This document shows positions 22,794 through 50,770 of a stretch of 64,000 bases of DNA, in pieces (position 1 is the stretch's first letter; every line of letters begins with the position of its first letter). The stretch spans positions 28,460,001 to 28,524,000 of the forward strand of contig OZ249436.1 of assembly GCA_965235115.1 (NCBI GenBank), written 5' to 3'. The notes beneath the pieces are model-generated. The model worked only from the letters and a program-made list of their open reading frames with translations, was not told where the DNA came from and did no database searches. Both the position numbers and the translations under genes were made by a program. This DNA is from Laetmonice hystrix (taxonomy: Eukaryota).

Positions 22794-22927
22794 ACTGTTC
22801 GTTAAGGGCGGTAGTTAGTTCAGGCGTGTGTTCAGTGACTTCTTCTCAATGCGAACAAAGAAGGCTCCTAGAAGAGTGAAGTCAGACATACTTACAGACA
22901 TAGGTGACACGTTAAGATGTTCATAAT

Positions 22928-25486: not shown

Positions 25487-26267
25487 CCTGTCCCCTGTCT
25501 CTGTGTGTTGTCCTGTCCTCTATCTGGGTTTGACCTGTCCCCTGTCACTGTGTGTTGTCCTGACCTCTATCTGGGTTTGACCTGTCCCCTGTCACTGTGT
25601 GTTGTCCTGACCTCTATCTGGGTTTGACCTGTCCCCTGTCTCTGTGTGTTGTCCTGTCCTCTATCTGGGTTTGACCTGTCCCCTGTTACTGTGTGTTGTC
25701 CTGACCTCTATCTGGGTTTGACCTGTCCCCTGTCACTGTGTGTTGTCCTGTCCTCTATCTGGGTTTGACCTGTCCCCTGTCACTGTGTGTTGTCCTGACC
25801 TCTATCTGGGTTTGACCTGTCCCCTGTCACTGTGTGTTGTCCTGACCTCTATCTGGGTTTGACCTGTCCCCTGTCACTGTGTGTTGTCCTGACCTCTATC
25901 TGGGTTTCACCTGTCCCCTGTCACTGTGTGTTGTCCTGTCCTCTATCTGGGTTTGACCTGTCCCCTGTCTCTGTGTGTTGTCCTGTCCTCTATCTGGGTT
26001 TGACCTGTCCCCTGTCACTGTGTGTTGTCCTGTCCTCTATCTGGGTTTGACCTGTCCCCTGTCACTGTGTGTTGTCCTGTCCTCTATCTGGGTTTGACCT
26101 GTCCCCTGTCACTGTGTGTTGTCCTGACCTCTATCTGGGTTTGACCTGTCCCCTGTCACTGTGTGTTGTCCTGACCTCTATCTGGGTTTGACCTGTCCCC
26201 TGTCACTGTGTGTTGTCCTGTCCTCTATCTGGGTTTGACCTGTCCCCTGTCACTGTGTGTTGTCCTG
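25487..26267. repeat. Minisatellite, 47-bp unit x ~16.5
   Basis: CCTGTCCCCTGTCACTGTGTGTTGTCCTG(A/T)CCTCTATCTGGGTTTGA repeated, with degenerate similar sequence on both flanks. Confidence 0.96.
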
Positions 26268-26599
26268 CTTTATAGGCCATTTTAAGTTTTGGGTAGAAGG
26301 AAACCCCTGTTATTTTGATCTGTTTTGTCCTGTCTACTATCATAGGTGTGCCTGTTTTGTCCCCTATCAGTAGGAATCTTGTGCTGGTCCCTGTCAGTGC
26401 CATGTCCTGCCCCCCGTCACTGCGTCACATCCTAGCCACTGCAGTCGTCCTCGCGTCATATCTCCTGCCATAGAAGTGTGGGTCTCACACGTTTTTCATT
26501 TTCTGGGACCAGACAGACTAGATCCATTCAGCCATTGCTACATTTACTCGGACATGAGATTCGTTAGATACGGTACGAGATGACACAACCACAGCCGGC

Positions 26600-27150
26600 G
26601 TAATTGAAATCCTGATGAAACTATCTCTAGTTGAAACGAGATTTTGTTAATCTATTCTGTCCCACCAGGTTGAATGGTGAAAATGCATGTTTCCCTTCCA
26701 ACTCGCATACCCGGTATAGTTCGGGATGCGGTATGTGCGGTAATACCGAGCCACAAGAAGAGTCGGGCAGTAGAATGAAGCCGAATCGGGCTCAGGTTAT
26801 TATTACATGTGTAATCAAACAGGTGAATGGAGGTTTCTGTCATAATAGTGTTAGATTCTCTCATCGTTTCATTGCTAGGCTTCATCTATATTTTTGTGCC
26901 GAAGGAGTAGTAGATCTTATTAGGAACTTATTAAATAATAACTCATTCTGGAGGCATCTAGAACCAGACTGAAAATTACTCGTATAGGAGTGAGCGCTAA
27001 AAAGTGATTTGGTCTTCAAATTTCATTCAGCAGTGCTTTCTGTACATTCTAGCATGTTTTAGTTATGAAATCAAGGACTTAGAGGAGAGTTACCAGCATT
27101 CTAGAATACGGTTCTGATCCAGTGTTAAACCTATTAAATATTCCTTGTCA
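26600..27150 (-). pseudogene. Possible L1/Tx1-like LINE 3' (zinc-knuckle region) remnant
   Basis: ETSIHLFDYTC resembles the ETxxHLFxxC motif of L1-clade ORF2. Heavily decayed. Confidence 0.25.
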
Positions 27151-27752
27151 TTCTCTGTGCCATGTCCGGTTTCCCATCACTTTGTTTGCCCCGCTTCCTT
27201 TGATCGTACCATGTCCTATTCTGTCAGACTCTCTTGTTCACCCCCTTTCGTCCTGCTCCCTATCGGTGGTTTTTGATCTACTCCATCTCACAATATGAAA
27301 GGGAAGTATAAAAAATATTACAAAGTACAAAGTGGGGACCGTTGTTACCTAAAAGTATAAAGGACATAGAAAAATTCCTCTGTTAATATGACGAGGATTT
27401 TTATGTTTTCACTGCATGTGCAGGAGTACGTTTTCTTTCTGCTGAAAAATGTTTAACTTTGGTTACTACAGTGAAAACATGACGAACTTTTACCTTATGG
27501 GTACACCGTAGGAATTCTTTCTTTTAGGCCCATATGATGTGTTCCTATAATTTTGTTATGTCTCTCAAGTGGTCAGCTTTCAGGTCGAGTGATCAAACGC
27601 TCTCAACAGCCGCGGGGGTTGTACGTCCCAATATTGAAGCAGGAATCGTATCAGGCAGCAAACCTTCAAATAAAGGGCTCCGTTGGTTTCTAACACGTGT
27701 ATTCTACCGGCCAGCGGGGGGGGGGGGGGGGCTGGTAGAGGCGGGGGAGGGG

Positions 27753-28046
27753 TTATTGATACGCGCCAACCGGGGGGGACCAGGTATAGGTGGGGAGTGG
27801 TTATTGATACCCGCCAGCCGTAGGACCAGGTATTGGGGGGGGGGGGGTGGTTATTGATACCCGCCAGCCGTAGGACCAGGTATTAGGGGGGGGGGTGGTT
27901 ATTGATACCCGCCAGCCGTAGGACCAGGTATTAGGGGGGGGGGTGTTATTGATACCCGCCAGCCGTAGGACCAGGTATTGGGGGGGGGGTGGTGGTTATT
28001 GATACCCGCCAGCCGTAGGACCAGGTATTAGGGAGGGGGGTTATTA
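27753..28046. repeat. G-rich minisatellite, ~47-50-bp unit x ~6 with variable poly-G
   Basis: TTATTGATACCCGCCAGCCGTAGGACCAGGTATT(A)G(n) repeated. Confidence 0.92.
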
Positions 28047-28850
28047 GTACGGACAAATCTGACCAGTAAAGTGTGTATTGTGTCCACGCAGGTGTAGCGG
28101 ACAGTGACATACGGCCAGGTTGTCCCGATGGGACCATCCTGATTGGGTTTTCCCTTATGAGATGGCGGGGCCCATTCAGACCCTAAGCCCGCCCCGGCCC
28201 GTGACCCGAAGTCAAATAATAGACCCGCTCTCGGGAAGATGGAGGATTAATGGGGCAGAGAATTGCCAAGTAATTGGATCTCGTCACCGTGTTTTCTACG
28301 TGTGGGAAGTCACGCTATGTGGTCTGCGAGAGAATGTGGTCTACGGCGGCGAAATCATGGGCAGTCATTGCAATCTGTCTGATATTGGGTTATTTTGTTG
28401 CTTTTTTCCCCGCTCGCAATTAAAGATAAAATGAAGGAAAATGGTGTGTCTGGTATAATGGAGTGCGTAATAAAACGGGTTGCTCGATGGTGTACTTGAT
28501 GGGCAGGCACGGAGGCAGGATAGTTTCAATCGGGACAGTGTTTACATTAGGCCATTCAACACAATCAAGAGGCAAGTTAACATAACGGCCTGGGATGAGG
28601 GTATTTCGGAGTGAACGACAACAGCGAGTTATGGGGAGTGTGCCAGTGTTAACATAAGGCTATAGGATAGCGCTCACTGTAGGACTGGCGGCGGCACCGT
28701 GCCACCGATACGGCCCTCCACCTGTGTCCGAGCAATGTAAAGTCCGTATGTGGCGTCTGTCTGAACCATGTAAAATCGTGCCATGGTGCAGCCCATCATG
28801 CTCCTCTGTCTGCAGTTTGTAAAATCAGTATGTGACGTTTGCCTGAAGTT

Positions 28851-29178
28851 TGTAAAATCGGCGAAATGCCACATATTTCCGCCAGCCTCCTCGGTCCACA
28901 ATATGTAAAATCGGCGGAATGCCACATATTTCCGTCAGGCTCCTCGGTCCACAATATGTAAAATCGGCGGAATGCCACATATTTCCGTCAGGCTCCTCGG
29001 TCCACAATATGTAAAATCGGCGGAATGCCACATATTTCCGTCAGGCTCCTCGGTCCACAATATGTAAAATCGGCGGAATGCCACATATTTCCGTCAGGCT
29101 CCTCGGTCCACAATATGTAAAATCGGCGGAATGCCACATATTTCCGTCAGGCTCCTCGGTCCACAATATGTAAAATCA
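28851..29178. repeat. Minisatellite, 53-bp unit x ~6
   Basis: TGTAAAATCGGCGGAATGCCACATATTTCCGTCAGGCTCCTCGGTCCACAATA repeated, with degenerate units upstream from ~28735. Confidence 0.95.
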
Positions 29179-32100
29179 GATTTCAGCACCAGCGACCTGC
29201 CGTGACATAGATGTTTCCGGTCTATGTCAGAGTGTCTGCGCTAGATAAGCACACATAAAGTGTCATCTTTCCCGAATACATAGACATAATGAGGGATATG
29301 TAGGCCAGGCAGGTGTGTGCTGTCTGTGGGGGACATGCTTTCTTAAATAATATTAATTTTGCCGCGGGAAACTCCGACGTTATTGATGTTAGAGCTAAAT
29401 GATCTTTTTATGTCCTCTACTCGTGGAATACAGACAAAAATAATGAGAAAAATGATTCCTCATTTCAGCATTTGTTCTAAACTGATGTGCGTAGCCTTTC
29501 TCAGTGAAAGCTGGTATCAGATTACGAGAGGGATTAAGTTCGAATTACTTCAAATACTTGAGGCTCCTGAGATCGGCGCATAGAAGTGCACATTTGAATC
29601 ATGGTAATGAAATCATATGCAACAACAAAACAGAGAGACTCCATAGAGTTAGCAAATTGAATTGTCTCATTGCGATTTTAACAGAACTTATTTTGTCAGT
29701 AGAAATTACTTCGTCATTAATCGTCTAAAATTATTGTTACTTTCTCAAGAAAATGAAATAGCTGTTCAAAGTAGGACATTTAAAGGATCATCAAGGATGA
29801 GATGGAATATTTGGGTTAGTTGTTCTCATTATCTGCTTCATAATGACTTAATCTGTTAAAGCTCTGGTGAGCCAATGCTGACGAGGCTATTTGTTTTCAT
29901 TCCATCAGTTTAGAATCTCTGACTGACTCTGGGTAGTGATTGATATAAACGAGATACTAGATTGGCATACAGTCATTTAAGTAGGATGTCACTTTATAAA
30001 GGGGCCCGTACACACTGAGGCGATTTTCCGTGCGACGTCCGTGCGGTTTTTAATTTAAAGGTACGGGTAGACATTTACTGGGCTGCAGGCCAGTATCTCA
30101 TCGTAGTCCGTTCGTGACACCGGAAAAAGGTTTTATCCTTTATCTATAAAATGGCAAGGGGTAATATACCTGAACCTTGCTTATTGTATGAATCATGGCG
30201 TATCTAATTATGGATTGTCAGACCATGCAATTTGTCTACTTCACGAAATCATTCTCAATGGGCCTCCTTTATTCTTGGCAAACCATAACCTCAAAATCTT
30301 ATACCTGGACATATTCTAGAGTCTTCAATGTAGGTACTCAAGGGATATGAAATCCTCTTACAGTCTGTGTCGTTATTGGCTGTAATTAGATAGTGTGGAA
30401 CCATCGGTCTTTAAATGTCACAAACCAGGTATTATCCTGAGTGGTGAGCAAGAATTGGGACCCATTGGGTTAAGTGGATTATTATTGGGTGTCTGTCCCG
30501 AGGACAGTGCCATCAGTTACCTTGGTGACTTCTATAGTGACAGGTAAATACAGGTGTACCTCACGGCATACGTTGTTTCTTTCCCACTCTCTCCAGCCAG
30601 TTATAGAGTTATATAGAGTTTTTACAGGATTAAAGAGAGACCTTCCAAAAATTAAAATAATACGATTGAAATATTATAAAATAACTACGAGCAATTTTGA
30701 CATTTTTACGCCTACGTGATTATGTTGGGATGCCAGAGGCTCGAGCAGTGACGTTTAAAATTAATCAAATAATATCTTGCGCTATTAAATTGACAAACCT
30801 AAGAAATAATGAATATTGCCATACCTGCATCACTGCAATGATAATGGGATTAACGACACAGAGATGGATTATTTTCTCCTGATGCATTAATCTTATAAAC
30901 TCGATTCTCATTGGTTTAATATTCAATCATTGGTTAGACAACCCCATCGGCAGTCGCGTACCCGGACAATATTATTTAAACTACGGACCAGTATTTGCCT
31001 CCATCCAGTCATGATACTGAAATGAAAAGATCGCACAAAAATGGCACTACTAAAGATCACTCAGAATAGAGCCTTTGAAGTCTGACGTAACAGCAGCATA
31101 GGACGCACAGACAGTTGAAATACCAACCAGGGTCGCCAGAACCTAAACATCAAAAGAAATCTAACAATAGGATTTGTGAAATAGGTCTTGTATCACCTGC
31201 AAAGGCCGGCAATATTAAATAATACTTTAATTGACTATTCTTTATAATAAATATATATACTAGACGCATTCAGGTGGTTTTGTCATTCCGACACAGCCAA
31301 AAGTACGTACGCTGTGTTTATGCTGCGTTTTCAGGCGCGCCATAGTTTAGGTTCTGGTGTTTGGTGCCAACCTAAATGGCGGAATTACCAGGAGAGCAAT
31401 GAATGTCATTACGTCCGGTTCAAGTGGGGGGGGGGGGGGATTTAAAATGACCCGGAAGAAAATCACGCCGAGGAGACAAAACAAGGGCTGTACAAGTAAG
31501 TGGTAAGTAAGCACACCCTGTCTGGTGCAGTGTTGTCGTGGAAATCAAACATGGATTATTTCAGTAGACACAGGATGACGTGACTTCCTTATGAATGCTA
31601 CAGGCGCCAGTATCACGGATGGCCTGGCGATATGCAAGGTTAGGTTTCTCGGCCGGATGGCTAGAAGTCTATCAGCCCCACTTTCTGCTCGTCTAGAGAG
31701 GAGAGGGAAAATCCACAATGACGAAATGGCTGCACGTGAAGCACTTTGTAAACATAACTTAACATGAAAGGGAAAACAGATTGGAAACATGATTACTACT
31801 TCACGAGTAGTTGTCAGAAACTGAAGAAAATCAGGCCGTGTGATATGTTTTACAAGTTTACTCTGGATGCAGCCATGGAAAAGGGAATGGGATTTAATGT
31901 TGTTTTTATCCATTATTCATGCAGTATCCGTGAACATTTTTAACATGTGTCAGGTGAAGAATAATGTAACAGTTTAGTCCGTGATTGTAGTTAATGGAGA
32001 TTTTAGGTCCCGTCGGCAAATGTTGTCAATCTGAGAACAAGTCATTTTATTCTGTGCATTTCGGTCGGTTCAGTTTTAGTCAGTAAATTTTTACTGGTAA

Positions 32101-33139
32101 TGGTCCAGCAGTCGGACTTATTCCATGTGCACATTGCGCAGGGCTTTCAGGCACAAGTCGCGGCAGGGCAGAATGACAAGTAGACCAACTCACCTTTCAC
32201 GCCTCCACACGCCTTTATAACCAAAAGCTTATAATAAATAGTTAATCAAATCAGGGCCGCCCCAACTCGGGGAGAATATCTAATCTGAGACGTGTCTAGA
32301 GCTAGCAGACCGCAACTTGACGTCATTTCAAGTGCTACTCGGCGAACGCTGGCGGCAAAATCTGTTCAAAGTGTCACATCACACACTCCTAATTACGCCT
32401 CATCATACACTCTTAATTACGCCTCATCATTCCCTCTTATTCTGGGGCTTCACTCGGTTAATTCAACCAGATGTCTCCTGGCATATTGAGTGAGGGTAGT
32501 CTTCAGCGGCAGAGAGGAACCAGTAGTGGTATAGTATTGACACCCTGTACACACCAACAGACTGTAATCTACCCAGCGCGACTGCAGATGTTCGCAAAGT
32601 GTTGACAAGTCATTTGTGATGGACCATGACACTGCAAAGACATTGCAAAACTAAAGCTTTTGTGAAACTAACTTTATTTGAGCAGTGAAAAATGTTTATT
32701 GAAGATTACAGTGTTCTTATATTCACCTTTCTAACCTCTCTTAAAGGTGATTAACTTCTTGTTGTTTTCGCAAGCATTCACTTTGAAGAAATATTGTAGG
32801 GGTTTTTCCGTGAAAATTCACTTCTCTTCCATTAAATTCTTAAAATAACAACAACAAAAAGGGTCTATAATTTTCACCACGAAAACTGCAGTGAGGAGGA
32901 GTCCGGAGGACGGACTTTGTGTGACGGACCTTAATAAAACGTTTGGTGATATGAAACGGCTGTTCTGCCCCAAATACAGACCCCCGGTTTTGTCATAAAA
33001 ATCTCAAGGTACGTCTGTGGTTTTTTGTCAAGTGACTAGACCACGTCTATTCTATAATTTGCCGTATATTTTGGAACTTTATCTCGCATGGCTGTGCGGC
33101 AGGATAAGCCGCACAAAGCTCAGCGTAGTGATATATCAG

Positions 33140-33420
33140 ACCCGATACGCATGTTCTCTCCTATTTCGGAAAAGAGTGAATTCTGTTGGTCTCTCCTTCA
33201 AGAAGAGAGTTTTCACCCAACGTACCTTATAGTTGAGGGCTGAGATCCCTAGATTATTAGCTAATCACAGACCGTTAAGGTTAGGTTTAGGGTTAGTCTC
33301 AATTTGAAGAAGGAATTCTACACCCATTGCGTCCATCACTAGGCGTTGGGTGAAACTATAATGGATGGAGAGACCAAGAGATTTCTCTGCTTGAAGAAGG
33401 AGAGAACATGTGTATGTCTA
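33140..33420. mobile_element. Old MITE with ~55-bp imperfect inverted ends and a central GGTTAGG-rich core
   Basis: CATGTTCTCTCC...TTGGTCTCTCC near 33150-33197 mirrors GGAGAGACCAA...GGAGAGAACATG near 33367-33410. Confidence 0.5.
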
Positions 33421-35500
33421 TGACGGACCTATGGAGTGTTTAGGCCTTGGTCATAGGAGGGTTACTGCTGGTGTGTGTGTGTGACAGGCATGATGCGTGG
33501 CGACGTCATGGCCTAGTTCTTGCGGTATTTTCCCCTGGAGCATTGTTTATAAACAACTCAACACCAGTAGGCATTGTAAGAGTCTTTCAACTGCTTCAGG
33601 TGATCTAAAAATAAAACCGTTTGGAATTCTTGCATGAGATTTTAATTAAATGATTTACACAGTGGTAAGCTTGATCATGTTAATTAGATCTGAGTAAAGC
33701 ACATCTTAACTAAAAGTAAAGGAGAAGCTTATTCATGAGCTTATTGAAGTGATCATGTGCTATTAGCTATTGCTATTAGCTATTGCTAATCAGGAATTTT
33801 AATACAGTACTATGCATGATTTTGTGATGCAACTGGAAACAAAGATGGAGTGTCTATACTGTGAGCAATACTATAGTATGCACTAGATTACACGAATCTT
33901 TTGTACTTCTAAACTCCGAAACAACAGTCTCTCTGAGCAAGAGAACCACTAGACAACCGTACGCTGCTTCTTCCGATCACGCACAAAACTCTCAGATTGT
34001 CAAAGCTAGTGAAATGTTGTTGTTTTCGGGCATTATCAAACATGGGTACGTAATGCTCATTTATCTATTGGCAAGCCCACCTGCCGCTGCCTTTTTGTAT
34101 TCAAACGAATGTGTTGTGTTCAAGGCCAGACTTCAGTGACGGAGGTAGTTTGGGTGTTTGCAAAACGAAGAGCAGTTGATGTGATGTTAGAAAACGATCG
34201 AAATGACGTCATTTAAAAAGTGCTGTCATGTTAGAACAGTGTTGACAGGGAGGAATTACCACGGGTCTTCATGGTAAATTCTGTATGGTTAGAGTGAGAG
34301 GCGTTTTTGTTTCGGATGGATTCCACCATTTAAGCACACATATTACGCGCACACCTTCAGTAATAAGATAATCTGCAGTGCTTTGGTATTTTTGGTTGCC
34401 TGTAGATATAAGTAGAATTAAGACTCTAGCAGTTCGCAGTAGTTCCAGACCGAATACGCCGTCGTGCATAACAAAACGCAAAAACTTCTATACACACAGC
34501 GCTCACCCGATATTTTGCTGTTTCAGTGTCTTTCCTTGCCGTTGGTGGCGACTGTCCCTGATTATTTAAGTACTAGTTAATGTAATGTAGCGTTATAGCA
34601 CCACCCATCTGCCCAGTAAGTAAACACCTGCCGTAGGGTTTACAAACAGAAAACACCATGTTAGAGGCAGGTGAAGTGACGGTAGCCGAGTACCACAACA
34701 AACTCGTGTGTCTCTGAGATCACTGGGATAATTTCCCTCGGTAATTCTGTACCCCCCCCCCCCCAACACAGCATCTCTCTCAACCAGATTGTCATCCGCC
34801 ATCCTCACTGTGCTTTGTTCAGCTAGTTGTAACCACTCGTGGCTCGCTGTACGCAAACTTTGTCAACCATGCGGCGGTTTCTGTAAATTTTGTAGTTGCC
34901 GTCAAGCAGCAAGGTTAATAGTGACGATTTACCCTTGCCGGTATAGACCGTCTCGGTTAGCTGTCAGTCTATAGCAAATTAAGGTCATATACAAATGATA
35001 AAAAAAGACCGAAATGGAGCGTTGTGGGTAGAGTCAGGATGTTGGTTTTAGTATAATTTTTGACACGCTGACATAACCCCCAGGACCTGCCAGCGCCAAT
35101 AGTCGTAACACGGCCAGGCCATGTTCGGCGGGCCACCCAAGGCCATATTCGTGTCAGGAGGGGCACAGCCCTTGCAAAGGTTACCTTGCATTACCTGACA
35201 AAGTGCCGTGCGTCTACAAGATCTGTGCCCAACCATGGGTCACTCATGGGATAAGACGAACATATGTTATGTAGGTGCTTCATCAATGAGTAATGGGAGA
35301 TTGATGTTGCTGTGGTGGTGGTGGTGAGGGGGTCTGATTGGCGCAGGTGTAAACGGACGTGCTTTTAAGCACTGGATAGGCCTGTGCTACGGTTGTGTGT
35401 GATTGAACCACTGATCTATGAGTGTATGTAGGACAGGAGGTATGTGATTGGACCACTGAGCTGTGATTGGTTGAATTCGGGTCTATGTTCTATGACGGTC

Positions 35501-35862
35501 ACTGTTCTATGACGTATTACACGAGGTCTGTGAGTGACAACTGTTCTATGACGTATTACACGCGGTCTGTGATTGACAACTGTTCTATGACGTATTACAC
35601 GAGGTCTGTGATTGACAACTGTTCTATGACGTATTACACGAGGTCTGTGATTGACAACTGTTCTATGACGTTTTACACGAGGTCTGTGATTGACAACTGT
35701 TCTATGACGTATTACACGAGGTCTGTGATTGACAACTGTTCTATGACGTTTTACACGAGGTCTGTGATTGACAACTGTTCTATGACGTATTACACGAGGT
35801 CTGTGATTGACAACTGTTCTATGACGTATTACACGAGGTCTGTGATTGACAACTGTTCTATG
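35501..35862. repeat. Minisatellite, 39-bp unit x ~9
   Basis: ACTGTTCTATGACGT(A/T)TTACACGAGGTCTGTGATTGACA repeated, with an outlying monomer at ~36131. Confidence 0.96.
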
Positions 35863-36167
35863 TGTTTTATGTAGAATTCCCGTTACGGAAGTGCCGTTTT
35901 GCACATGGCATACACTGAGACACCTCTGCCTCCTGCCTCCGTTCTGAGCAGGGGACCAGTCCAAACGCTGCTATATATATATAGAACAGCCAATCAGAAA
36001 ATTCCGGTCACTAAAGACACAGCAGGCAATCCGCGCTTTACTACAGCTGGGCTATGGACCTATACCCTGGCTATGCCGTTGGGGGGTCCGCCAGGTGGAC
36101 TGTTCTGTGTTTAGAAGTCACTTATTGGACGACTGTTCTATGACGTATTACAAGAGATCTGCAATTA

Positions 36168-36611
36168 GGTTCGAGGACAACAAGTCCCTGCCAAATCCCC
36201 CCCCCCCCCCCCGACATTCACACATATCCCAGACATCTACCCCTTAGGACAAGCGCCCCCTATGACATTCAACCCCGTAAGACATCTACCCCCGAGGACA
36301 TTCACCCCCATGATATCCTTGGACATTTACCACCCATGTAGGCCTATGTATGAGGGCACGTGCATGCATGTGTGGGTGGGTTCGTACATACGAGGCTACC
36401 AGGTTGAACTTTAACTAGGGTGAATGTCCTTATGATGAGTGTCCTAGGGTGAATGTCCTAGGGTCGAATGTCCGGGACGAATGTCCTAGGGGTGAATGTC
36501 GGGGGACGAATGTCCTAGGGGTGCATGTCCGGGGACGAATTCCTAGGGGGTAGATGTCCAGAGGGTGAATGCCCGGTGAGTTGATGTCCTCAGGGTGGTT
36601 GTACTGTCACC
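36168..36611. mobile_element. Foldback-type MITE with mirrored GGACATTCACCC / GGGTGAATGTCC sub-repeat arrays (Mutator-like)
   Basis: Inverted arrays of ~20-bp sub-repeats. Imperfect 9-bp TSD CTGCAATTA / CTGTAATTG. The joined flanks rebuild a monomer of the 39-bp satellite. Confidence 0.7.
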
Positions 36612-36726
36612 CTGTAATTGGGCGACTGTTTGTATGATATCTATGACAGCGGGTCCACATATTGACGCTGTTCTATGAGTGGTTAGTAATTAGAGCACTC
36701 TGAGTACTTATGAGTGTGTGTAGCCT

Positions 36727-36820
36727 CCTAATCATATATTCCTTTTTCTCTTTGCAGGTAAGTGATGACCTTTCACCTGGTTTTGGTAGTTACCTCTACG
36801 ATGACGTGGGTTAGGTGAGT
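36727..36820 (+). other. Candidate recursive splice site with 57-nt RS-exon (36758-36814)
   Basis: Branch-like CCTAAT, polypyrimidine TTCCTTTTTCTCTTTG, CAG|GTAAGT at 36757/36758, and a second donor TAG|GTGAGT at 36814/36815. Confidence 0.6.
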
Positions 36821-36957
36821 TTTTACTGGTGTAATATCAGGTACAGGCCCTGAACAGTCAATGTATTGCAATCAATTCAAGGTTTCAGTATATCTACAAG
36901 GAAAGAAAACGCTTCCATGATATGGAATGACTAAATGACTAAATGTTATAAATGACT

Positions 36958-37092
36958 AAAAACACTGTCCTAGTGCTGTCAGTTAACTCTTTCAGCTCGG
37001 GGGCCATGAAGTGTGGTACGTTATGATAACGTACCACACTTCATGGTCCCCGAGTTGAAAGAGTTCACTGACAGCACTAGGACAGTGTTTTT
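36958..37092. repeat. Near-perfect palindrome/hairpin, 67-bp arms with a 1-nt centre
   Basis: Arms 36958-37024 and 37026-37092. 64/67 Watson-Crick pairs; two of the three mismatches are G:U in the + strand RNA. Confidence 0.95.
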
Positions 37093-38720
37093 GAAGTTAC
37101 TACCCACAGCAGAACAAAAGCAGACGAGCTCGGAAACAGAATTCTATATAAAAACCAGACACGGGTTCCTCTGAAGTGTACGGTAAACTAACAAATCCTG
37201 AAATGCCGGACCCATGTACGGCTTTCTCCGCCGTCCCGCCATCATAATGGTGTCGTCTGAATTTATGGCCATATTATATTGTAGGATGTTCTCGGAATGA
37301 AAAGGACAAAGCCAAGTGTTTTGGCCTGTAGCTTGAGTAATCCATCCAGGAAAAGGATATAATAATCAAGGGTGATCTGGTCATGTAGTCTCCGATATAT
37401 GAGTGCTGATATCAGGGGAGCCTGGGTGGGCCCTATCTTTGCCTGTAGTTTGTGATCTTACACGTAGTGTCGCCATCTAACTGGCACGTAATATGTGACC
37501 TTATTGGTGCTTCAGCATGGTAAAACTTTCGCCGTGACACGCTGGCGATTCTCTTTGACGCCATTCGATGGATTATTTTTTACTGCAAGGGGTCGTTGTG
37601 TGTTTTTTTCCCTGGTGATGCAGTGCCTCAAGCGCAGTGCAGTTCCAATAACGGACAGTGGAAAGATAAATGTCACCAACACAATGATGATATATTCCGG
37701 TAACACCAAGGTAGCAAAATAGATTTTTTCATTGCGAGGAAGTTTCTGAATGTCACGCGGTGAGATGGCTTTTAGCCCAACGTAAGTCGTTAGGAAATTC
37801 TGGAAACACAGGTAGAATCTTCTAAGTTCTTCTCGTCAGAAAAAAATCAATAAGATCGATTTGAATCAAGTCAGAATATGACATCCGGTTCCCCCGGAAT
37901 ATATCGGTGAAATACCAAGGTTGCCTCGTGATTTTTATTACGGTTTTTTTTACAAACAATGCGCAGGTGGCCTTTCCCCAAACCAGACCATTGAAACCTT
38001 CCTTTGTTGTTATCAAGGAGAACAGAGTTTGGTCTGTCTGTACGAGACCAGAGTGGTTGGATTGGTATCTTTTTTTTGCCCCTCCCACGTGCCCTTCTTC
38101 CGTTAAGTCCAATTATGCCTCGGCATGTTGTGAAAGCTGCAGCATTGCCAAAGCATATGTGAATCACAGAGAAAGCTGGAGGATCATGCCTGCTGGCCTT
38201 GTCCAATCAGCTGCCTCTGTAGAACGCTGCCGCGGTGCTAACTGGCCTCGTTAATGGCTTTCTGCAGAGCTAAGGACCCGTTAATCGGTCTGTGATTAAT
38301 GCTGGAGACAACCAGTCCATGCGAGCGCCTGATTGGCCGGTAAACAAACCGGTCATACAACACGGCGCCCGTAAATGTAACGTGGCAATTTTCTCAACTC
38401 AAAGCAACTTTGGGAGCTTGAAATTGCGCAGAGCATGCAGGATCTGGAAAATTAATGGCAAGAGACTTGTATGACGTTAAACCTTTCTCAGGGGGCTTTT
38501 AGGTAACCGGTCATACATGTGCCAGTGTATCGCCTGGGACGCATGATTGGTACTTTAGTGGTCAGGGCGGTATACTGGAGAAAGTTGGTTGTTCCTTGTA
38601 CTCCCTTGGGAATTGATGCGAAGGTCTTGGTACTTGCGTCTGCAGTGTGGTGGGTCAGGGGTGTGAATGCTTCTGGCGATTCACAGCAGACTGACCGACC
38701 ATTTAAGGTGGAGTGTTAAA

Positions 38721-39495
38721 CCCTTGTAAGGGCACATGGGGTCTTTTGTGACCCCAGACGGGCATTTATCCTTCTCAAGTGTATTACGAACAAATTTACG
38801 TTATTATTATTTTTATTCATATCTACATAGCCTCCAGATATGCAGATTGGTTTCCTAGACTTCCGTTGCAGGGCAGCTGGGCTCTACAGTCGGTCTACAG
38901 GACCCCAGGTAAAAGTGCCATCTGGTGGTGATAATTGAGGTCACAAAGCCTGTATTGTTTCGTTTCACACTGACCGTTTTAGAGTAACGTCTAAAATATA
39001 TAGCCTAAGACAGTCTTCAGTCAATTTTCCGCTAGTCATGTTTGAAACAATTATTGGGGGTTACTGTGTATTTTCGTCCTAGTTACAGAACATCTCAATC
39101 CACAATATTACATGACCGTAGATATAGTTGCCATTACATCGACTTGTTTCATTTCCAAAAATGAGATATGTAGATTATATTCTTTTGTCTGTCTCTGAGT
39201 GTATCTATCAGTATAAACATAGCCATAGGCTCTCTCTATAATCTAGGCCTAGAATATAATCTAGGTCCTATACGGATGTTTGGATTTAAGAATGCCATCG
39301 GTAATGCACATTTTTCACATTATAATCAGTTTTTAACGGGTTGCATCCGGCATATAAAATGCCTGAGGTTTTTAAAAATAGATAATAGTAATGCTTTATC
39401 AAGTTTATTTGTAAGGTTCTGATAACTAAATTATGGGGTCTGAATGGACCCTTTGTGCCCTGCAATGTGATTCTGTGGACGTGCCCTGACAAGGG
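38721..39495. mobile_element. Non-autonomous piggyBac-like element
   Basis: CCCTTGTAAGGGCAC ... GTGCCCTGACAAGGG|TTAA (14/15 TIR, CCC/GGG termini). Left flank TTAAA. Subterminal GGGGTC..GACCC motifs at both ends. Confidence 0.75.
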
Positions 39496-41446
39496 TTAAA
39501 CTAGTTACTTTGCTTGACCTCCATTTGCATAAAGCTTGAAATTTAAATATTATTTAAATCATCAGTGCAGCAGACGTATTATCCGAGGGTTGCGCAGGGC
39601 GTTTTGTGCAACTAGGGGTGGTAGATGTGAGGTGTTTTGCAATACCAGCTAGCTCCCTTTTGTCAAACATTGTATTCGTACCACATCAGCGTGTGAACAG
39701 GTCGTTTGGGTCTGGTTAATTTGGGCGTCATGTTTCTAGCTGAATGATTATAGGAGTATCACGTTGATGATTCTCATGATGAGGTATTAAGGCTAAGGTT
39801 GGTAGGTATAGTTGTTATACGTCACTGCGCAGAACGGACATTGTCAGCGGATCCAGCCCGTATAACTCTCTTTGATCTTCAGGGGGAGGTGGGCCTTGTA
39901 CGATGGAGTCGCCACATCGAGTCGGCAGATGAGGACCCGACTCTCTGCAGCCCCCGCAGGCATCACACCTCGTTGTTTTTATCTGTATCGGTTCACAGTT
40001 TGATCCATGTCTGTTGTCAAGATACAACAGGGATGTTTTCTTGTGACAGCGAAACATATTTGTGTTTCATGAATTTTTAAGGGTGTGTTTGACGCTGATG
40101 GCTGGATCCGTGGTGTATATATAGTAAGCAAGCGTTCTATTATACCCTGCAGGGTTCCCAGCGCTGGGGATGCTGGGAAATGAAACCGGAAATGATTTGT
40201 CGCCGGTGACGCGACCGTTTCCGTGGTTCCACTGGGATATGTCAAAAAAGGCTGATTGGGCAGGCATGCTGGCGGCTACAAAATAGGGCTCGTGGAACAC
40301 GACCTTAATATTGTTAAAATGTCGTTTTACGTTTTGCGGTAGACAAGAAAAGGCGGCACTAGAGAGATTAGAAATTGATACACCGGTTATGATAATAGCG
40401 TTTTAAAGCTGCTAGTTTGGATTGCCGATTGTGAACTGGAATGGTAAAGATATCAGTTCCATTGCAAATTAGTTCATGAGTAATGGGAGTGAAATAACCC
40501 TGAGCGAAACCTGCATTAATTCATTGTTTCTAATATTTTTCATATTAATTTGATACAAACGGGAGGAGCTTGAAATGGTTGAATATTTGATGGGCCTAAA
40601 AATAAAACTCTGGCTGAGGCGTTAGATTCCATTTCTGCCTATTAATCAAATAAAGGTAAAACCTGCATACAAAATGATTAAGTTCACATTAGTTGTGTGC
40701 GGCAGCACCACCTTGTAGGACCGCCCATATTTAAGAGATTGTCCGTGCTACGTCCCTGCGAGTTTAAAGGATTAAAATCCAGTGCCAGTGCTAGGACATA
40801 TAACTTTTTGGAATAAACTTTACCTTTAAAGTAAAAAAAATGCATGGGGGTCATATGGAAAAATCACTTCTATGTTTGCAGCTTTGTTATCAAGCGTTGT
40901 CGGGTCAGAAGCTAAGTGAATTGACGGGCCACCGTGCACTCTGAAACACACGTTTCATATTATATATATAAAAAAAGTTGGTAATGCTATCCCATTTTAT
41001 TATTATAAACTGGCCCTTATATATGGGTGGATCCTGTATGACATGGTAACCAATTAGCTGCACACAGAAATCCCCGCGCCAATCAATGGGAACAGGACAG
41101 ATGTAAATCAATGTTGGCCGCTTTTATTAATCATCTGATCGTGGATGAAATGGAATGAATCGCTTGCATATTTACTCCGTATACCTCACAATCCGTACAA
41201 ACTTTCTGGTAATCTTTGTTGTTGTTGTTGTTGGTTATTCTATAAAAGTTCCAATAATCCGTATGTTTCAGAATCCCATCGTATTTTAGTGGCCACCGTG
41301 CTGATCTAATAAACGAGGTCTGACTGCATAAGGTTCATTCACAATCTTGAATTATTTTACTAAAATTTCCTCCTTATATAGAGGGAATGATAACATTTTT
41401 CAGTCACTTTCAGATCGGTTTTGCTGAACCGCACAATGCATGAATG

Positions 41447-42075
41447 TTTTTAGCCCCAACCCAAAGGGGCGGGGGCTTCTAATTCGCCCTCCATCCCTCC
41501 GTCCGTCCGTCCGTACGTACGTGTACATGTACGGACGTAGACAGGGAATTGTCAGAAGTGTATGGGTCAAATTGCATAAAACCTTACACTATGATGAGGG
41601 ACGGTCTGAGGATGATGCATGTCAAATAGATTCTGATATCATTAGAAAATGGTCACTTCACAGCCATCTTGGATGTAAACACATTTCGAGTAGTAAGTCT
41701 GACAAAACGATTCCGGTTGCTTTTAAATTTTGTGCAAGGAAAAAGCCGATGAGGGGGAAAAATGAAAATAAATGGGCACGGCTTGTGACCCCGCATAATG
41801 CCTTCTCTTTTCACCAAATTTGAAAGAAATCTTTGTTATTATTCCCCCAATGTGTTTATATCCAAGATGGCCATCAAGCGGCCATTTTGAATGATATCAA
41901 AAACCTGTGACCTGTGTCATCCTTAGACTGTCCAGATCAGGTTTCATGCAAGAATTTGTCGTTTTTGAGATATGAGACAAAATAGTGTTATTTTGGGAGT
42001 CAAAAAGCAAATATGGCTGTCATGTCCCCATTTTCGGTCTGAACTAAGCATTGGCATATATACAATCAAAATAAA
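41447..42075 (+). mobile_element. Helentron-associated (HINE/DINE-like) non-autonomous element, partial
   Basis: T-rich 5' end TTTTTAGCCCC..GGGGC hairpin and (CCGT)n microsatellite. Body homologous to 45048-46198, 49987-50770 and 61424-61880. Contains internally inverted halves. Confidence 0.65.
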
Positions 42076-42583
42076 TAAGTTATGGGTGTCAAATAAGGAT
42101 TTATTCCATGCAACGTGAATATCATCATTTCAGCCCATTGACACTCAAACCAAAATCTTAGCTGGGGTCGGCAAAGCATCAGGCTGGAGATCTGAATTTC
42201 AGCGATTTGAAGTTACCTGATATCGAGTTCATGTTTTAGTCTCTAACCCGAAGAGATGAGCCTGCTTTTGTGTATGAGTCAGCTAGTTTGACAATGCCCA
42301 TCATTATCTGTTTAGAAGTGATAGTAGGATGATACACGTCAGATAGACTTGTGGTCGATATTATAGGAGACGAACTAATGGCCTTCCTGGCAGCAAACAA
42401 TAGGTGCTTGCGGTGACCTTACCGTCAGAGATAGGTTAACTGTCACCAACCTACAGGTAACAATGCAGAGGTCGCTTGCTTCCTAAAGTGGGTGTTAAAC
42501 GCGATAATTTACAGAATGTATTGAAAAATATTTCTACCTCTTATACGACCATGTGCTTGTTTGCCAACATGTTACAGATAAGA

Positions 42584-42996
42584 TATTCGTCTTATATACC
42601 CTAAATTAGGTACAAATGTCATCGTTTTCTTCTGACTAATGACAAATAAAAAAAACAAATCGGGTAAAATACGATCGTCTTTCCAAATGAATGAAAAGTA
42701 AAGATTGTTTTTTTTTTCGAAAATTTCGCCAGGAAATTAGTAGCATACAAATCATACAAATTTGCAGTTTATCTACACTTTAATAAAGGCGCCTAATGGA
42801 TCGGAATGTTCAGATTTACACGTATACTTATCGTCTCACCTCTATACGTTATGGAGTTGGATACTTGTCATAGTGAATATCTAGTATTCGTCTTATATAC
42901 CCTAAATTAGGTACAAATGTCATCGTTTTCTTCTGACTAATGACAAATAAAAAAAACAAATCGGGTAAAATACGATCGTCTTTCCAAATGAATGAA
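42584..42996. repeat. Two identical 112-bp direct repeats separated by 189 bp
   Basis: TATTCGTCTTATATACCCTAAATTAGG...CCAAATGAATGAA at 42584-42695 and 42885-42996. Confidence 0.92.
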
Positions 42997-44579
42997 CATA
43001 CATGTATATGTTAATATAAGAAGACAGCAGTGAGGATCTCTCGCAGGGTGAAACAAACTGGAAAGAAAACGGAAGAAAACAGGATGAACGCCGCCATTCT
43101 GGCATGTCGAGAATCGTAGAAACTTAGGTGTTATAATAACTATCTGTGCGTGGGAACGGGTCTCCAATAGAGCCACCTACAATTCTCTGGGCCTAGGAAA
43201 CTCATAGAATGATGGCTTATATATCTGAGAAACGCAATGCGGGTCTGGTTTTGGTGAAACGGCACGTATCGTGACACAAACTCTTTAAGTCCAGTCGCGC
43301 TTGAACCTGATTTACTATGTGGAGAGTTGCATTGGTGGTAGAAATACATAGCTGCATGGTTTTGCACCTTGAAGCATACTGAAAATAATACTGCCTGTCC
43401 ACTGAAATAGTCTGACTGAAATATTCTGCAATTATACCATCATCCTTCCTGCAGATTGGTGTGTTGTTACAGCTAGGCTCGACTGGTTTATATTTGCAAA
43501 TTTTAAAGAAGAACCAACCTGGTGCTTTGTCGGACGGCTGACTTTAATAAATCACATACCCTATATAGTGGGGCGGATAGTCAAACCAATTGTGCATTTT
43601 GTGATAAAAGCATGAGAATTTTCACAGAGTAACCTGGGACCATACTCTTTAATTTAAGATAGGGAGGCATCCTGGATCCTGCCTGTGAGGCCTGTTTTAG
43701 CGTTTTGTTGCCTAGCAACAGTAACATGCTTAGCAACTGGCCTCATATGGTTCCAAGGAGATAAAGAAACACACCTACCCACACTAAAGTCATATCTTGG
43801 GTTAACATGGTAACATCAATTATTCCATAATACCAGCCCGTTGCCTAGCAACAGATCTTGGTTGTGAGACCTCCTTAGCAACGGGCTACCCCATCCTGAA
43901 AAATGTAGCTTTCAGTAGAGAAATCATAACAAGACGATGTCCAGTGTTTTACAGTTCATTTACATACATGTGTAGTCTTACTGTTGCCTAGCAACGGAGC
44001 TTGAATGACTCAGTTGGGGGGTTTTCTTCATATAGAGAGGCATCAGGAATTCTCCTTATATGAAGCTGGGCACCAGTTAGGAAAATGACATAACTACGCG
44101 ACTTGGTATCAGCTTTGCTTGGCTTCATATGGCTGCAGGGAGAAAAAGAAACATACCCACCCACACTAAAGTAGTATCACCGGTTAACCTGGTAACATTA
44201 GTCATTCCATAACAGCAGCCCGTTGCCTAGCAACAGTAACATGCTTAGCAACTGGCCTCATATGGTTCCAAGGAGAAAAAGAAACACACCTACCCACACT
44301 AAAGTCACATCATGGGTTAACATGGTAACATCAATTATTCCATAACACCAGCCCGTTGCCTAGCAACTGACCTTGGGTCTGAGACTTCCTTAGCAACGGG
44401 CTACCCCAACCTAATAAATGTAGCTTTGAGCAGAAAAATCAGACAAAAACGATGTCCAGTGCAACTGTAGTCATGTGGAATCTTAGTTACCTAGCAACGG
44501 AGCTGGATAACGCAGCTGTGTTTTTTTAAGGTAAGGAGGCATTAGGAACTCCTTATATGAGGCTAGGCACCAATTAGGG

Positions 44580-44849
44580 TGGGTGGGTGGGTATTTGGGG
44601 TTTTACGCCTTGCAACAGCCAGGGTCATATCACGGCGGTGAAGATGAGATGAAAGTCAGTTTTTCTTGGTGGAGGAAACCGGAGTACCCGGAGGAAACCA
44701 CCGACCTTCGGGAAGGAACTGACTGACAAACCTTTCACACATGCAGCCCAGGCCGGGAATCGAACCCGGGTCGCAGCGGTGTGAGGCGATGGTCCTAGGT
44801 GTCATGATGGAGCCGACACCTTAGACCACTCGGCCACCCGAGGCCCCCC
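44580..44849 (-). mobile_element. tRNA-derived SINE, copy 2 (full length), inserted in the left Academ arm
   Basis: Near-identical to copy 1. 12-bp TSD CACCAATTAGGG at 44568-44579 and 44850-44861. The right arm keeps the empty site (~47667-47687). Confidence 0.92.
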
Positions 44850-45047
44850 CACCAATTAGGGAAATTGTGTAATGCACTAATAGCTTTGCAAAAATCTATG
44901 TCTGAAATTCTGCGTCCAGTTGTAGGCAAATGTATCAGCAACAAGCAACAGAGTGACTCCGACCTGTAATTAAAGTGCGAGGGAGTGACGAAAAGATATC
45001 TTCCAACGACAGGACAAGAACAAAATACATGAATATTTTAATATCTA

Positions 45048-46198
45048 ACAAGCTTGTAAAGCTTATAGCCCCCACTAAGAACTATGGATTCTTGAAGAAA
45101 CGATGATCTTTGAGGGGCAAAGAAAAATTGTTAAATGAAACTTCGTATGTACTTCGTCTGCATCTTAGTAACTATGCAGTTATGTACAGTTTGATAGCGC
45201 TATGCGATATGAAGTGTTTTGTAGATACAGACAATTGCAAATATGCAATTGGAGGTTGACCTTAATGTCTTCTGTCACCAAGAACGAAGTCCTGAAAATG
45301 TCAGAGTTATTGCTTCGAATTTCTTCATAACCAAGATGGCCACCAAGCAACCATTTTTTAATATATGTTTGACCTGTGTCCTCCGTAGACTGTCCCCGGT
45401 TATTATGCAATGTTTCATGCAAGATTAGATGTTGTTATCTTCAACTGGTTTGGCGGTACAGGCCATTAAAATATGCATGACCTTGATTGCCCTTGCAAGA
45501 TCGCTCAAGGTCATGGGAAATGGTGCCAAATGAAACTTCATATACCACTTCCTATCTGTCAATAATAGTAATTATTGCCTTATCTTGCACCGTTTTCGAG
45601 ATATGAGCCCAAACAGTGTTACTGGGGGGAGTAAAAATATCAATGTGGCCGCAATGTCGCCATATTTGCTCTGATCTGGGAATACATTGCCATATACATT
45701 GCCCCTCATATGCACCTCCTTTCCGCCAAATTTGAAAGAAATCGGTATAGTTTTTCGAGTTATTGCTCCAAATGTGATTATATCCAAGATGGCCACCACG
45801 CGGCCATTTTGACTGATGTCAAAAATATCTTTGACCTGCCTCATCCGTGGACTGTCCCGGATCATTAGGTAATGTTTCATGCAAGATTATGTCGTTACCT
45901 TTAATTGTTTTGAAGATCCAGGCTATTGAAAATATGCATGACCTTGATTGACATTTCAAGGTCGCTCAAGGTCATGGAAAATGGCGCTAAATGAAACTTC
46001 ATATACCACTTCCTATCTGTCAATAATAGTAATTATTGCCTTATCTTGCATTATCTTGCAATGAAAATAGTAGTAACTATTGCGTCAAGCTTGCGCCGTT
46101 TTCGAGATATAAGCCAAAGCAGTGTCATTGTGGGGGTCAAGAAACAAATATGGCCGCCGGAGGGCGAATTATAAGCCCCCCGTTCTGGGGGCTAAAAA
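45048..46198 (-). mobile_element. Apparently complete Helentron-associated (HINE-like) element
   Basis: On the - strand: 5' TTTTTTAGCCCCC subTIR with nearby GGGGGGC inverted partner, ~460-480-bp internal core repeats, 3' GGGGCTA subTIR, then the short hairpin AAGCTTTACAAGCTT and GTT. Confidence 0.7.
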
Positions 46199-46235
46199 AA
46201 GCCCTGAAATTACACCAATTACCATGAATGATGAT

Positions 46236-46724
46236 GGTATCAGGGCACTCTCCCCTGGACATTCGCCCCGGATATCTGCCCCCAGACATTAGCCCCCGTA
46301 GGACCTTTGCCTCCCTATAGGACATGAGCCCCCCCCCCCGACATTCACTCCCAGACATTCACCCCTCGCCCCCCCCCCCCCGACATTAGCCCCTGTAGAA
46401 CTTTTGGCCTTCTAGGACATCTGCCCCCCAGACATTCACCCCCGGAGATTGCATCCATGGAACTCTGATATTCCCCACACACCTGTGCCTGCGCGGAGGG
46501 GTTAGGACAGGGTTAGAGTAGAGTTAGGGTTAGGGTTAGGGTTAGGTTAGGGTCCTAGGGGGGCAGAAGTACTCCGGGGGTTAATGTATGGGGGCAGATT
46601 TCCTAGAGGAGCAGAAGTCCTACGGGGGCTAATGTCCGGGGGGTGAATGTCGGGGGGGGGGGGGCAGATGTCCTAGAAGGGTAGGAGTTCTAGGGGGGCA
46701 AATGTCTGGGGGAGAATTGTCCCC
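46236..46724. mobile_element. Foldback-type MITE (GGACATT.GCCCC / GGGGC..ATGTCC arrays) with a central (TTAGGG)n-like tract
   Basis: Same architecture as 36168-36611. TTAGGG x3 at 46524-46541. Confidence 0.7.
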
Positions 46725-47086
46725 TTGCATTTGCATGCCGTCTTGCATTTGCATAAGATGCGGCATCCCTTTTTGCAGCCACAGGAAAGCAGCTCCTGGT
46801 GCTTTTGCTTCTTCAGGAAGGGTTGTCCAGTTTGGATAACAGTCCGTCTCCATTCTTCATCCATCCCCACGGCCAGGTTATAGGCGAAGAAAGCTCAGAC
46901 CTGTGCGGAATCCTGTGTCTGACCCCATGTGCCCAGCTTGTTAGGCAGCTCTCCTGACGTGTTGCATAGTTAGACGGAATTGCTGCTGGAGTGGTGATAT
47001 CTTCTTTGGGAACATTCTTTTATGGTTTCATTGACATAAGTGAAGTGCAGCTGTACATGAGTATGACAAATCTAGCTGGTACTCAT
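46725..47086 (-). pseudogene. Academ transposase C-terminal fragment (- strand copy)
   Basis: Frameshifted RFVILMY...QHVRRAA*QAGH-WGQT...WGWMK...PNWTTLPEEAK / QELLSCGCKKGCRILCKCK, matching the end of the XPG-like region plus the Cys-rich finger of AcademX proteins. Confidence 0.75.
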
Positions 47087-47310
47087 ACTAGACACAGGAT
47101 TCTGCACCTGAGCTTCCTTCGCCTCTTACCTTGGGATGGATGAAGAGTGGAGAGTTAGACGGACTGCACCATCCAAACTGGACAACACTTCCTGAAGAAG
47201 CAAAACCATGAGCTACTTTGCTGTGGCCCGTATCTATGCAAATGCAAGAGGGCTGCTCTGTAATGCACTTCCCTGTCTTTATGTGGAGGAGAGTGCTCAG
47301 AGAACTGACT
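47087..47310 (+). pseudogene. Academ transposase C-terminal fragment (+ strand copy, reaches the stop codon)
   Basis: TQDSAPELPSPLTLGWMKSGELDGLHHPNWTTLPEEAK / HELLCCG / LCKCKRAAL*CTSLSLCGGECSEN*. Confidence 0.75.
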
Positions 47311-47785
47311 ATGTCTATGATGTCCTTCTTTCTCATAAGAAAGTACTCTATCATAAATTGTGGCGTGAATTTTTCATTCTCAGAAGTAAAATACATACTT
47401 ACACAGCCGTGCCCAAAGCATACTAATCACAGAATAAATTTATACTTCTGCAGCAGCAGATGACATGATAAACAATACATTAAAAGACGCATTTAGAGTG
47501 TTTTCTAATTCCTTTGAAAAAACTATTTGGTTCTGTATGATTTTACGTTTCTGTATTGACTGTGTCTCAAAATACTATTCCTAAGTCTTTTCGCCACCTC
47601 CTTGCACTTTAAATCAATGGTTGGGGTCACCCTGTAGCTTGTGATACCAAGCAGTTATGTCATTGCCCTAACTGGTGCCTAGCCTCAAAAAAAGGAGTTC
47701 CTGATGCCTCTTTATCTAAAAAAACACAGCTGCGTCATCTAAGCTCCGTTGCTAAGCAATAGTAAGATATGAATGTGCACAGTGA

Positions 47786-48260
47786 CAGTGGCGGATCCGG
47801 GGGGGGGGGGGTTCAGGGGGTCCGCACCCCCTCGCCTCAAGTGCCCTTTTCTCTCCCCACAAGTGCCTTTTTTATTTTACGAAAGATTTTTAAAATTTAA
47901 ATGTCCAATTGTCTAGGCTTATAAAAAGTTATTATACCCTTAAAGGCTGGTCTATATCGCGTATTTGGCACTGTAATTTTAATTTTTTTCTGGGGGAGGA
48001 CCCCCAGACCCCCCCCCCCCCTAGATGGCTTCGTGCCTTCGGTGCTCGCATCATGGAGGACACCCCCTTCACCAAATTCCTGGATCCGCCCCTGACTGTC
48101 CCCACACTCCGAAATTTCTAACTACTGCTTGTCGATATGTGCATAGGCCTATATGCCACTTTTATTTGACTGTCTAGGCTACTCACTGGGGGGGGGGGGG
48201 GGGTTGAGAAAGTGCCCTTTTTCCATGGCACCCCCCCCCCCCCGTCTTAAAAATCCTGAG
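47786..48260. mobile_element. CAGTGGCGGATCC-type MITE (47786-48094) plus an adjoining related fragment, inserted in the right Academ arm
   Basis: Termini as in 2183-2360. Absent from the homologous position of the left arm. Confidence 0.7.
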
Positions 48261-49986: not shown

Positions 49987-50770
49987 TTTTAGCCCGCAAC
50001 CCGAACGTCCGTAGACAGCGATTTCTCAGAAGTGTATGGCTCAAATTGTATGAAACTTTACATAATGATCACGGGCGGTCTGAGGATGGTGCACGTTAGA
50101 TTTTTGATATCATTCAAAATGGTTGTTCAGCAGCCATATTGGATGTAAACACATTTCAAGCATTAACTCGCGGCCAAAACGATCCCGATTTCTTTCCCAT
50201 TTGGTGCAAAGATGAAGCATATGAGATGCAATGTATAGATAGATGTACAGTATACCAATGTATACAGTCCAGGGCCCGGTTTTTTTTGTTTACTTTTCCA
50301 CCGTGAGCAAGGGTGAGCTGAGCTGAGCAAGGGTGAGCAGAAGCTCATGCTCACCGTTTTTCCCACTGTTTTCGTTTTTTGGGGTGTTTTTCCGCGAGCT
50401 TGCTCACCATGAGCACGCCTCATGGAAAAAAGCAACCAAAAAAAGCGCAATAACGGTGAGAATGAGCTCATGCTCACCCTTGCTCACGGTGGAAAAGTAA
50501 ACAAAAAAACCGGGCCCTGAGCGAATATGGCGACAGTGCGCCCATATCTATTTTTTTACCCCCAAAATAACACTGTTTTGGCTCATATCTCGAAATTGGT
50601 GCAAGATAATAATTACTATTATTGACAGATAGGAGGTGATAATTATGTGAAGTTTCGTTTGGCGGCATTTTTATGACCTTGAGTGACCTTGAAAGGTCAG
50701 TCAAGGTCATGCATACAAGGATGACACAGGTCAAACGTAGGTCAGGGACATTTTTGACGATTCATATGGC
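49987..50770 (+). mobile_element. HINE-like element, partial copy
   Basis: TTTTAGCCC start. Body homologous to the 41447 copy and, in reverse, to 45048-46198. Confidence 0.6.
50270..50519. mobile_element. MITE with ~49-bp TIRs nested in the HINE-like copy
   Basis: CAGGGCCCGGTTTTTTTTGTTTACTTTTCCACCGTGAGCAAGGGTGAGC and its reverse complement ending at 50519. Confidence 0.8.

Follow-up and report, generated by a model that had tools for sequence, protein, structure and literature searches.

A probable ratchet point for recursive splicing, with a putative stop-containing RS-exon, in the long 5' region of a spiralian TRPM3-like gene

Recursive splicing is documented in flies and vertebrates; for sea urchin and other insects it has been deduced from motif counts, in which RP-site motifs were enriched in long introns (PMC2773006). 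Among fly ratchet points, 196 of 197 carry TT at positions -6/-5 (10.1101/006163). The cryptic RS-exon of flies, about 50 nt in length, is recognised first and then skipped, owing to competition between its own donor and the rebuilt one (PMC8605326; PMC6224609). For vertebrate RS-exons, the nine cryptic sites of Sibley 2015 are recounted in the same two sources (PMC8605326; PMC6224609), and annotated human RS-exons are reported to be repressed by the exon junction complex (EJC; PMC6224609). A search by titles and the opening of abstracts, with subscription papers for the most part and supplements outside its reach, retrieved no literature on recursive splicing in annelids, molluscs or octopus, and the papers that it listed for recursive splicing together with TRPM do not, at this level of reading, describe TRPM genes as being spliced in this way.

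Here we describe a site, within an analysed stretch of 64 kb (hereafter the window), that is probably a ratchet point. With it comes a putative cryptic RS-exon that contains stops, and both are placed in the very long, presumably intronic 5' part of a TRPM3-like gene. The grounds for this reading are the motif, its strand, the host gene and the statistics of a genome-wide class of similar layouts, and it is from these that we infer every splicing step. As in the Drosophila ratchet points Ubx-RP, kuz, Bx and luna (PMC8605326; 10.1101/006163; PMC6110457), a strong acceptor with a prominent pyrimidine tract and TT at -6/-5 abuts GTAAGT, a second donor follows about 50 nt on and encloses a putative non-coding RS-exon, and the location appears to be a very long 5' intron; in flies, the ratchet point of Bx is situated in the 5' UTR and such sites are enriched in first introns. 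Every Drosophila-type sequence feature tested was found at the TRPM site, namely the strong tract, TT at -6/-5, a branch point and the downstream donor (Table 1). Unlike its Drosophila counterparts, the site resides in a spiralian host and is a predicted one; the genome holds about 17 strict sites, compared with more than 500 in fly; and the segments flanking the TRPM site could reach about 95 kb, compared with 2.6-63.6 kb (10.1101/006163) and typically 9-15 kb (PMC6110457) in fly. Cryptic RS-exons of flies do not, as a rule, preserve the frame, but the lengths in the class described here lean towards multiples of three, and at the TRPM site the RS-exon donor and the rebuilt donor would be of similar strength. 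Like PMC2773006 on sea urchin and insects, the present analysis provides a computational sign of selected AG/GT ratchet motifs in invertebrate long introns; that study, in which neither word occurs, includes no annelid and no mollusc, and it predates the RS-exon test applied here.

Table 1. Positions of the splice signals, putative exons and first conserved host-gene exon (window coordinates unless indicated otherwise).
Feature	Position	Strand	Basis and remarks
Branch-point-like CCTAAT	36727..36732	+	Sequence; likely branch A at 36731, 27 nt before the junction
Polypyrimidine tract and CAG acceptor	36739..36757	+	Sequence; 15 pyrimidines in succession at 36739-36753, TT at -6/-5, CAG at 36755-36757
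Putative ratchet-point donor GTAAGT	36758..36763	+	Abuts the acceptor AG; junction 36757/36758
Putative cryptic RS-exon, 57 nt	36758..36814	+	Stops in all three frames
RS-exon donor TAG/GTGAGT	36812..36820	+	Cut at 36814/36815
Candidate upstream exon MAGTMDGLTDSVSSLRLA	15106..15178	+	Proposed in the preliminary description; phase-0 end
First conserved TRPM exon (SQRSWIERVF..., phase 0)	G000:C1:28595949-28596028 (window-equivalent 135949-136028)	+	Homology

The preliminary description of this DNA had reported a strong acceptor with a 16-nt pyrimidine-rich tract, a perfect GTAAGT and, 57 nt on, a second donor TAG/GTGAGT, with a stop in every frame of the intervening segment, and all of these elements are borne out by the sequence and its translation. 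Positions -20 to -5 comprise 15 pyrimidines out of 16, as against 8-14 in 23 real TRPM acceptors; the site had been chosen for the strength of its acceptor, so that the purity of the tract by itself proves little. The AG-free zone preceding the acceptor spans 32 nt. In frame 0, the 57-nt segment reads VSDDLSPGFGSYLYDDVG and then its sole stop, the terminal TAG that constitutes the last codon, whereas the other two frames open with a stop followed by VMTF... and with K, two consecutive stops and PF..., respectively. When scored with splice matrices set by hand from general metazoan frequencies (rather than with MaxEntScan), the site is the top-scoring + strand AG/GT in the surrounding 464 kb. 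The motif stretch is single-copy, with one match in the 627-Mb genome, and the RNA structure predicted at the site is nothing special (z=0.23). In the second haplotype, positions 36627-36837 are unchanged, the only differences in the aligned contig (36627-36912) being those at 36838, 36848 and 36856; the comparison concerns one sample, in which a divergence of about 1% makes a clean stretch of 94 nt common, and it therefore carries little weight. Three read runs of the same sample behave as genomic DNA, as judged from their even intronic cover and differences of about 1%, and among the joints listed for them none fell at the site. The flanks of the site are rich in repeats, with a MITE-like inverted repeat containing internal 15/29-nt units upstream (36205-36609) and a 67-bp hairpin, 96% perfect, downstream (36958-37092). 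A CCG/GTGAGT donor located 182 nt upstream of the site falls within an inverted repeat and is taken as chance.

The TRPM3-like channel gene begins 99 kb downstream of the site on the same strand, its first conserved exon (Table 1) being followed by more than 20 further exons co-linear with four spiralian TRPM proteins in tblastn searches. Pfam matches were obtained for three of the four TRPM exons submitted, with Ion_trans scoring 24.7 bits, just below the cut-off of 25; the host is identified as TRPM1/3-like by its SLOG (LSDAT_euk), TRPM2-like and Ion_trans domains, encoded along a co-linear series of exons. The best named match of the host gene is from the annelid Owenia (89%), above nemerteans (86-87%) and molluscs (81-85%), which speaks against the 'mollusc-type' genome assumed at the outset; the animal is taken to be a spiralian and probably an annelid. 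The earlier expectation of + strand transcription across the site is likely to be correct, given that 17 of the 19 ten-kb bins between -50 kb and +140 kb (window-equivalent) have a positive GC skew and all 11 bins between -160 kb and -50 kb a negative one, the latter part containing a predicted minus-strand gene. The exons on the minus strand between window-equivalent -135580 and -154758 belong, we assume from their motifs, to a PDE8-like phosphodiesterase gene divergent from TRPM, and an exon near -65300 is presumably polysaccharide-deacetylase-like. Taken together, GC skew and predicted exons suggest that the transcription unit starts near -55/-60 kb. The whole window (1..64000, + strand) would then lie within a 5' region of about 190 kb, with the site some 95 kb from the presumed start, that is, about midway. 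What points to a long intron is the distance of 99 kb to the first conserved TRPM exon, the sense GC skew and the lack of a predicted exon cluster, the transcript and the upstream exon being presumed.

No recognisable gene was found within the window, nor a cluster of predicted coding exons in the 5' region ahead of 135949. The exon finder, which had been trained on TRPM, recovered about ten exons of an independent minus-strand gene and only one of a downstream kinase gene composed of short exons; small exons can therefore escape it, and the apparent emptiness of the neighbourhood is a soft result. Elsewhere in the TRPM 5' region, AG/GT occurs at four weaker sites on the + strand, none with a strong second donor, and at four on the minus strand. 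One full site in about 190 kb would imply flanking segments of up to the 95 kb mentioned above. Several further observations pertain to the same region. The window contains 18 copies of GTAAGT on the + strand and three on the minus strand, and donor-like hexamers lean towards the sense strand across much of the TRPM unit. An AG/GTGAGA follows a CT microsatellite at window-equivalent 215514, 3 kb before a gene that we take to be MAP2K5-like. Within the window, a stop-to-stop frame of 160 residues on the minus strand (18699-19181) resembles a fragment of a Harbinger-type transposase and is adjoined by a 91-nt tandem array.

As to the exon to which the ratchet point would be joined, the preliminary description had placed a 21.6-kb intron between exon 15106-15178 and the site. 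This intron is not established. Exon 15106-15178 is missing from the 17 candidate exons that exceeded the thresholds in the 5' region, and no homologue was found for the 40-residue stretch that ends with it, a weak test, although it ends in phase 0, the phase in which the first conserved TRPM exon begins, and could therefore be joined to TRPM. When the TRPM N-termini of relatives were compared with the 5' region by tblastn, nothing better than E=0.1 was obtained; in these relatives, many unrelated N-termini are spliced onto a SQRSWIE-like exon. A coding role for the 57-nt segment or for exon 15106-15178 was rejected on the same grounds, namely the absence of a tblastn match and of a homologue. 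Equally, the frame-1 ATG of the 57-nt exon could be joined in frame to TRPM only via an AG located 2 nt inside the next exon, which is unlikely.

On its own, the junction motif is no more frequent than expected by chance. The pattern Y9-N-YAG/GTAAGT matches the genome 45 times, as against 41 times for the reversed pattern, and an order-4 Markov simulation of 1e8 bases produced three bare motifs and no full layout, which would translate into approximately 0.004 bare motifs per window and 38 per genome, as estimated from only three matches. We have accordingly discarded the enrichment of the bare motif as an argument, on the basis of these counts and of those per pentamer (about 34 for each GTRAG vs about 28 for each GTYNH pentamer). 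The stricter form Y12-N-CAG is enriched (18 vs 4 reversed), and T occupies position +6 in 18 of 34 Y12-N-CAG/GTAAG sites once 25 tandem rows are collapsed to one. A 39-nt tandem array at G000:C1:19554304-19555426 contains 25 copies of the pyrimidine-CAG/GTAAG motif.

The full layout behaves differently. A GTRAG is found 32-62 nt past the junction in 14 of the 45 sites and in only two of 45 at a shifted distance of 132-162 nt (Fisher p=0.0017). Acceptors followed by non-donor GTRNH starts yield 117 such layouts, corresponding to a scaled expectation of about 1.5 for GTAAGT vs the 14 seen, and ordinary short exons are therefore not the explanation. In a census of all 45 sites, a second donor scoring at least 8 is present at +25..100 in 17 cases vs two cases at +150..225 (Fisher 1.6e-4), its actual distance ranging from 33 to 98 nt. 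Compared with the remaining 28 sites, the 17 members of this class more often carry a branch-like YTRAY (15/17 vs 11/28) and TT at -6/-5 (15/17 vs 11/28, and 12/22 among TRPM acceptors), and their AG-free zones are longer (p=0.02). The TRPM site ranks second of the 45 by second-donor score. Exon lengths in the 14-site set are 33-60 nt, in agreement with the roughly 50 nt of fly cryptic RS-exons (PMC8605326). They lean towards multiples of three (10 of 14; under other thresholds 10 of 17, p=0.027, and 7 of 12, p=0.066; a post hoc comparison), which might mean that several members are included cassettes like m1/m2 of Ubx. Given that GTAAGT starts are about ten times more frequent than expected and that T at +6 is enriched, the GTAAGT donor appears to be under selection, at least at the level of the class. 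Over 30 kb, GC skew on the strand of the motif is positive at all 13 other members of the 14-site set, two of which have a negative half. Exon predictions within about 12 kb of these sites are isolated and do not form runs; in Pfam searches with nine peptides from the vicinity of class sites, the four isolated predictions remained without a match. The initial interpretation of the AG/GT plus RS-exon layout as a recursive-splicing site is upheld in part: the likely + strand transcription, the genome-wide class of full layouts and the long stretch devoid of predicted exon clusters upstream of the TRPM3-like gene speak for it, the missing enrichment of the bare motif speaks against it, and recursive splicing itself is predicted.

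The outcome at such a site would be determined by competition between two donors, the strength of which was taken as the energy of the duplex with the 5' end of this genome's own U1. The RS-exon donor TAG/GTGAGT pairs with U1 at -10.6 kcal/mol and beats 19 of 20 real TRPM donors. As it stands, CAG/GTAAGT is a perfect donor (-12.9 kcal/mol), but after splicing the three bases preceding GTAAGT would be supplied by the upstream exon, giving -10.1 for ACG and for GCG, the last bases of candidate exon 15106-15178, -11.4 for AAG and -12.2 for CGG. With that candidate exon, the rebuilt donor would thus pair slightly less well than the RS-exon donor. Only eight of the 64 possible trinucleotides equal or surpass the latter, so that skipping of the 57-nt exon is not guaranteed, and the outcome could depend on the upstream exon. 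Copies of the U1 snRNA gene number at least 42 and are located on C1, C5, C19, C29 and C30, many in tandem clusters.

In the proposed ratchet mechanism, the strong acceptor and the TAG/GTGAGT donor would define the 57-nt segment as an exon. An upstream exon would then be spliced to 36758 with removal of the first intron segment, and the join would recreate a donor consisting of the last 3 nt of that exon and GTAAGT. This recreated donor would usually win, so that the 57 nt leave together with the next segment, towards the SQRSWIE exon. Where it lost, the exon would be kept and its TAG would end an upstream phase-0 frame, probably resulting in NMD, or the exon would remain as part of the 5' UTR.

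Alternatively, the signals could belong to a small exon that is mostly included, either as a non-coding part of the 5' UTR in a long TRPM isoform or as a poison cassette under regulation. The GTAAGT within it would then be silenced (e.g. by the EJC, as in annotated human RS-exons) or seldom used. Both of its splice sites are among the strongest of the gene, its 57 nt are a multiple of three, as in 10 of the 14 class members, and the rebuilt donor has no clear advantage in strength; moreover, it precedes the first conserved coding exon of a gene whose relatives have diverse N-termini, so that its stops need not matter. An exon of this kind would, however, leave the roughly tenfold excess of GTAAGT starts (14 vs about 1.5) and the enrichment of T at +6 (18/34) unaccounted for, and two of the ten members of the 14-site set with lengths divisible by three, namely L101 and the one at TRPM, have a stop in every frame. 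We consider predominant inclusion rather unlikely. The two donors could also be read without any use of the acceptor at 36757, GTAAGT serving as the plain donor of an alternative first or upstream exon with a pyrimidine-rich end and TAG/GTGAGT as an alternative 5' splice site. CAG/GTAAGT would be a perfect donor in that role (-12.9 kcal/mol), TRPM genes do use alternative first exons, and alternative donors would favour spacings that are multiples of three. Yet the site shows what belongs to an acceptor, namely a branch-like motif at -27, an AG-free zone of 32 nt and TT at -6/-5, all of them enriched in the class, and the DNA upstream is repeat-derived, with open frames of just 18, 11 and 8 codons, which makes a plain donor pair highly improbable.

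There remains a chance juxtaposition devoid of function. Some 28 of the 45 motif matches look like background, about 2.6 full layouts are expected among the 45, thousands of windows were scanned, and the flanks of the site are repeat-rich. However, the 14 layouts seen, against 2.6 expected, put the share of chance at no more than about 20% per member even if branch point, TT, strand and intron context, all of which the TRPM site has, are left aside, and the site ranks second by second-donor score; the unchanged second haplotype (36627-36837) points weakly in the same direction. Coincidence is thus improbable, and we retain the ratchet point with a cryptic RS-exon as the best explanation.

Considered singly, the TRPM site would be an ordinary example of a known mechanism, the added element being the genome-wide class test behind it. 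A spiralian class bearing the signature of exon definition would suggest that the mechanism is common to bilaterians. A more far-reaching and, in our estimation, doubtful proposal is that spiralians have a class of their own, made up of balanced RS-exons that often preserve the frame and have a donor roughly equal in strength to the rebuilt one. Channel isoforms would then be filtered at the TRPM site according to the promoter used, and all three bilaterian clades would possess recursive splicing by exon definition. Under such a balanced choice, the last three bases contributed by the upstream exon or promoter would decide between skipping, with a productive channel mRNA, and retention of the TAG; an exon kept with its terminal TAG would lead to decay or to a truncated N-terminus.

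The class provides about 17 candidate addresses in this genome, some of which lie close to recognisable genes or to each other. A Calx-beta exon, presumably of a Na/Ca exchanger gene, is located 14 kb beyond one class site (E=8e-6, just under the cut-off), the Calx-beta pair of sites (G000:C3:8391794 and 8421762) being on the same strand, 30 kb apart, with local repeats right after both junctions. A ratchet-like site at G000:C6:12525853 lies 13 kb before mid-gene exons of MORC type (Morc6_S5, zf-CW). Altogether, three same-strand pairs fall within 100 kb vs 0.16 expected, one of them representing a duplicated segment; besides the Calx-beta pair, same-strand pairs are located at C3:30686283/30756116 and C8:13672181 (GTGAG)/13701630.
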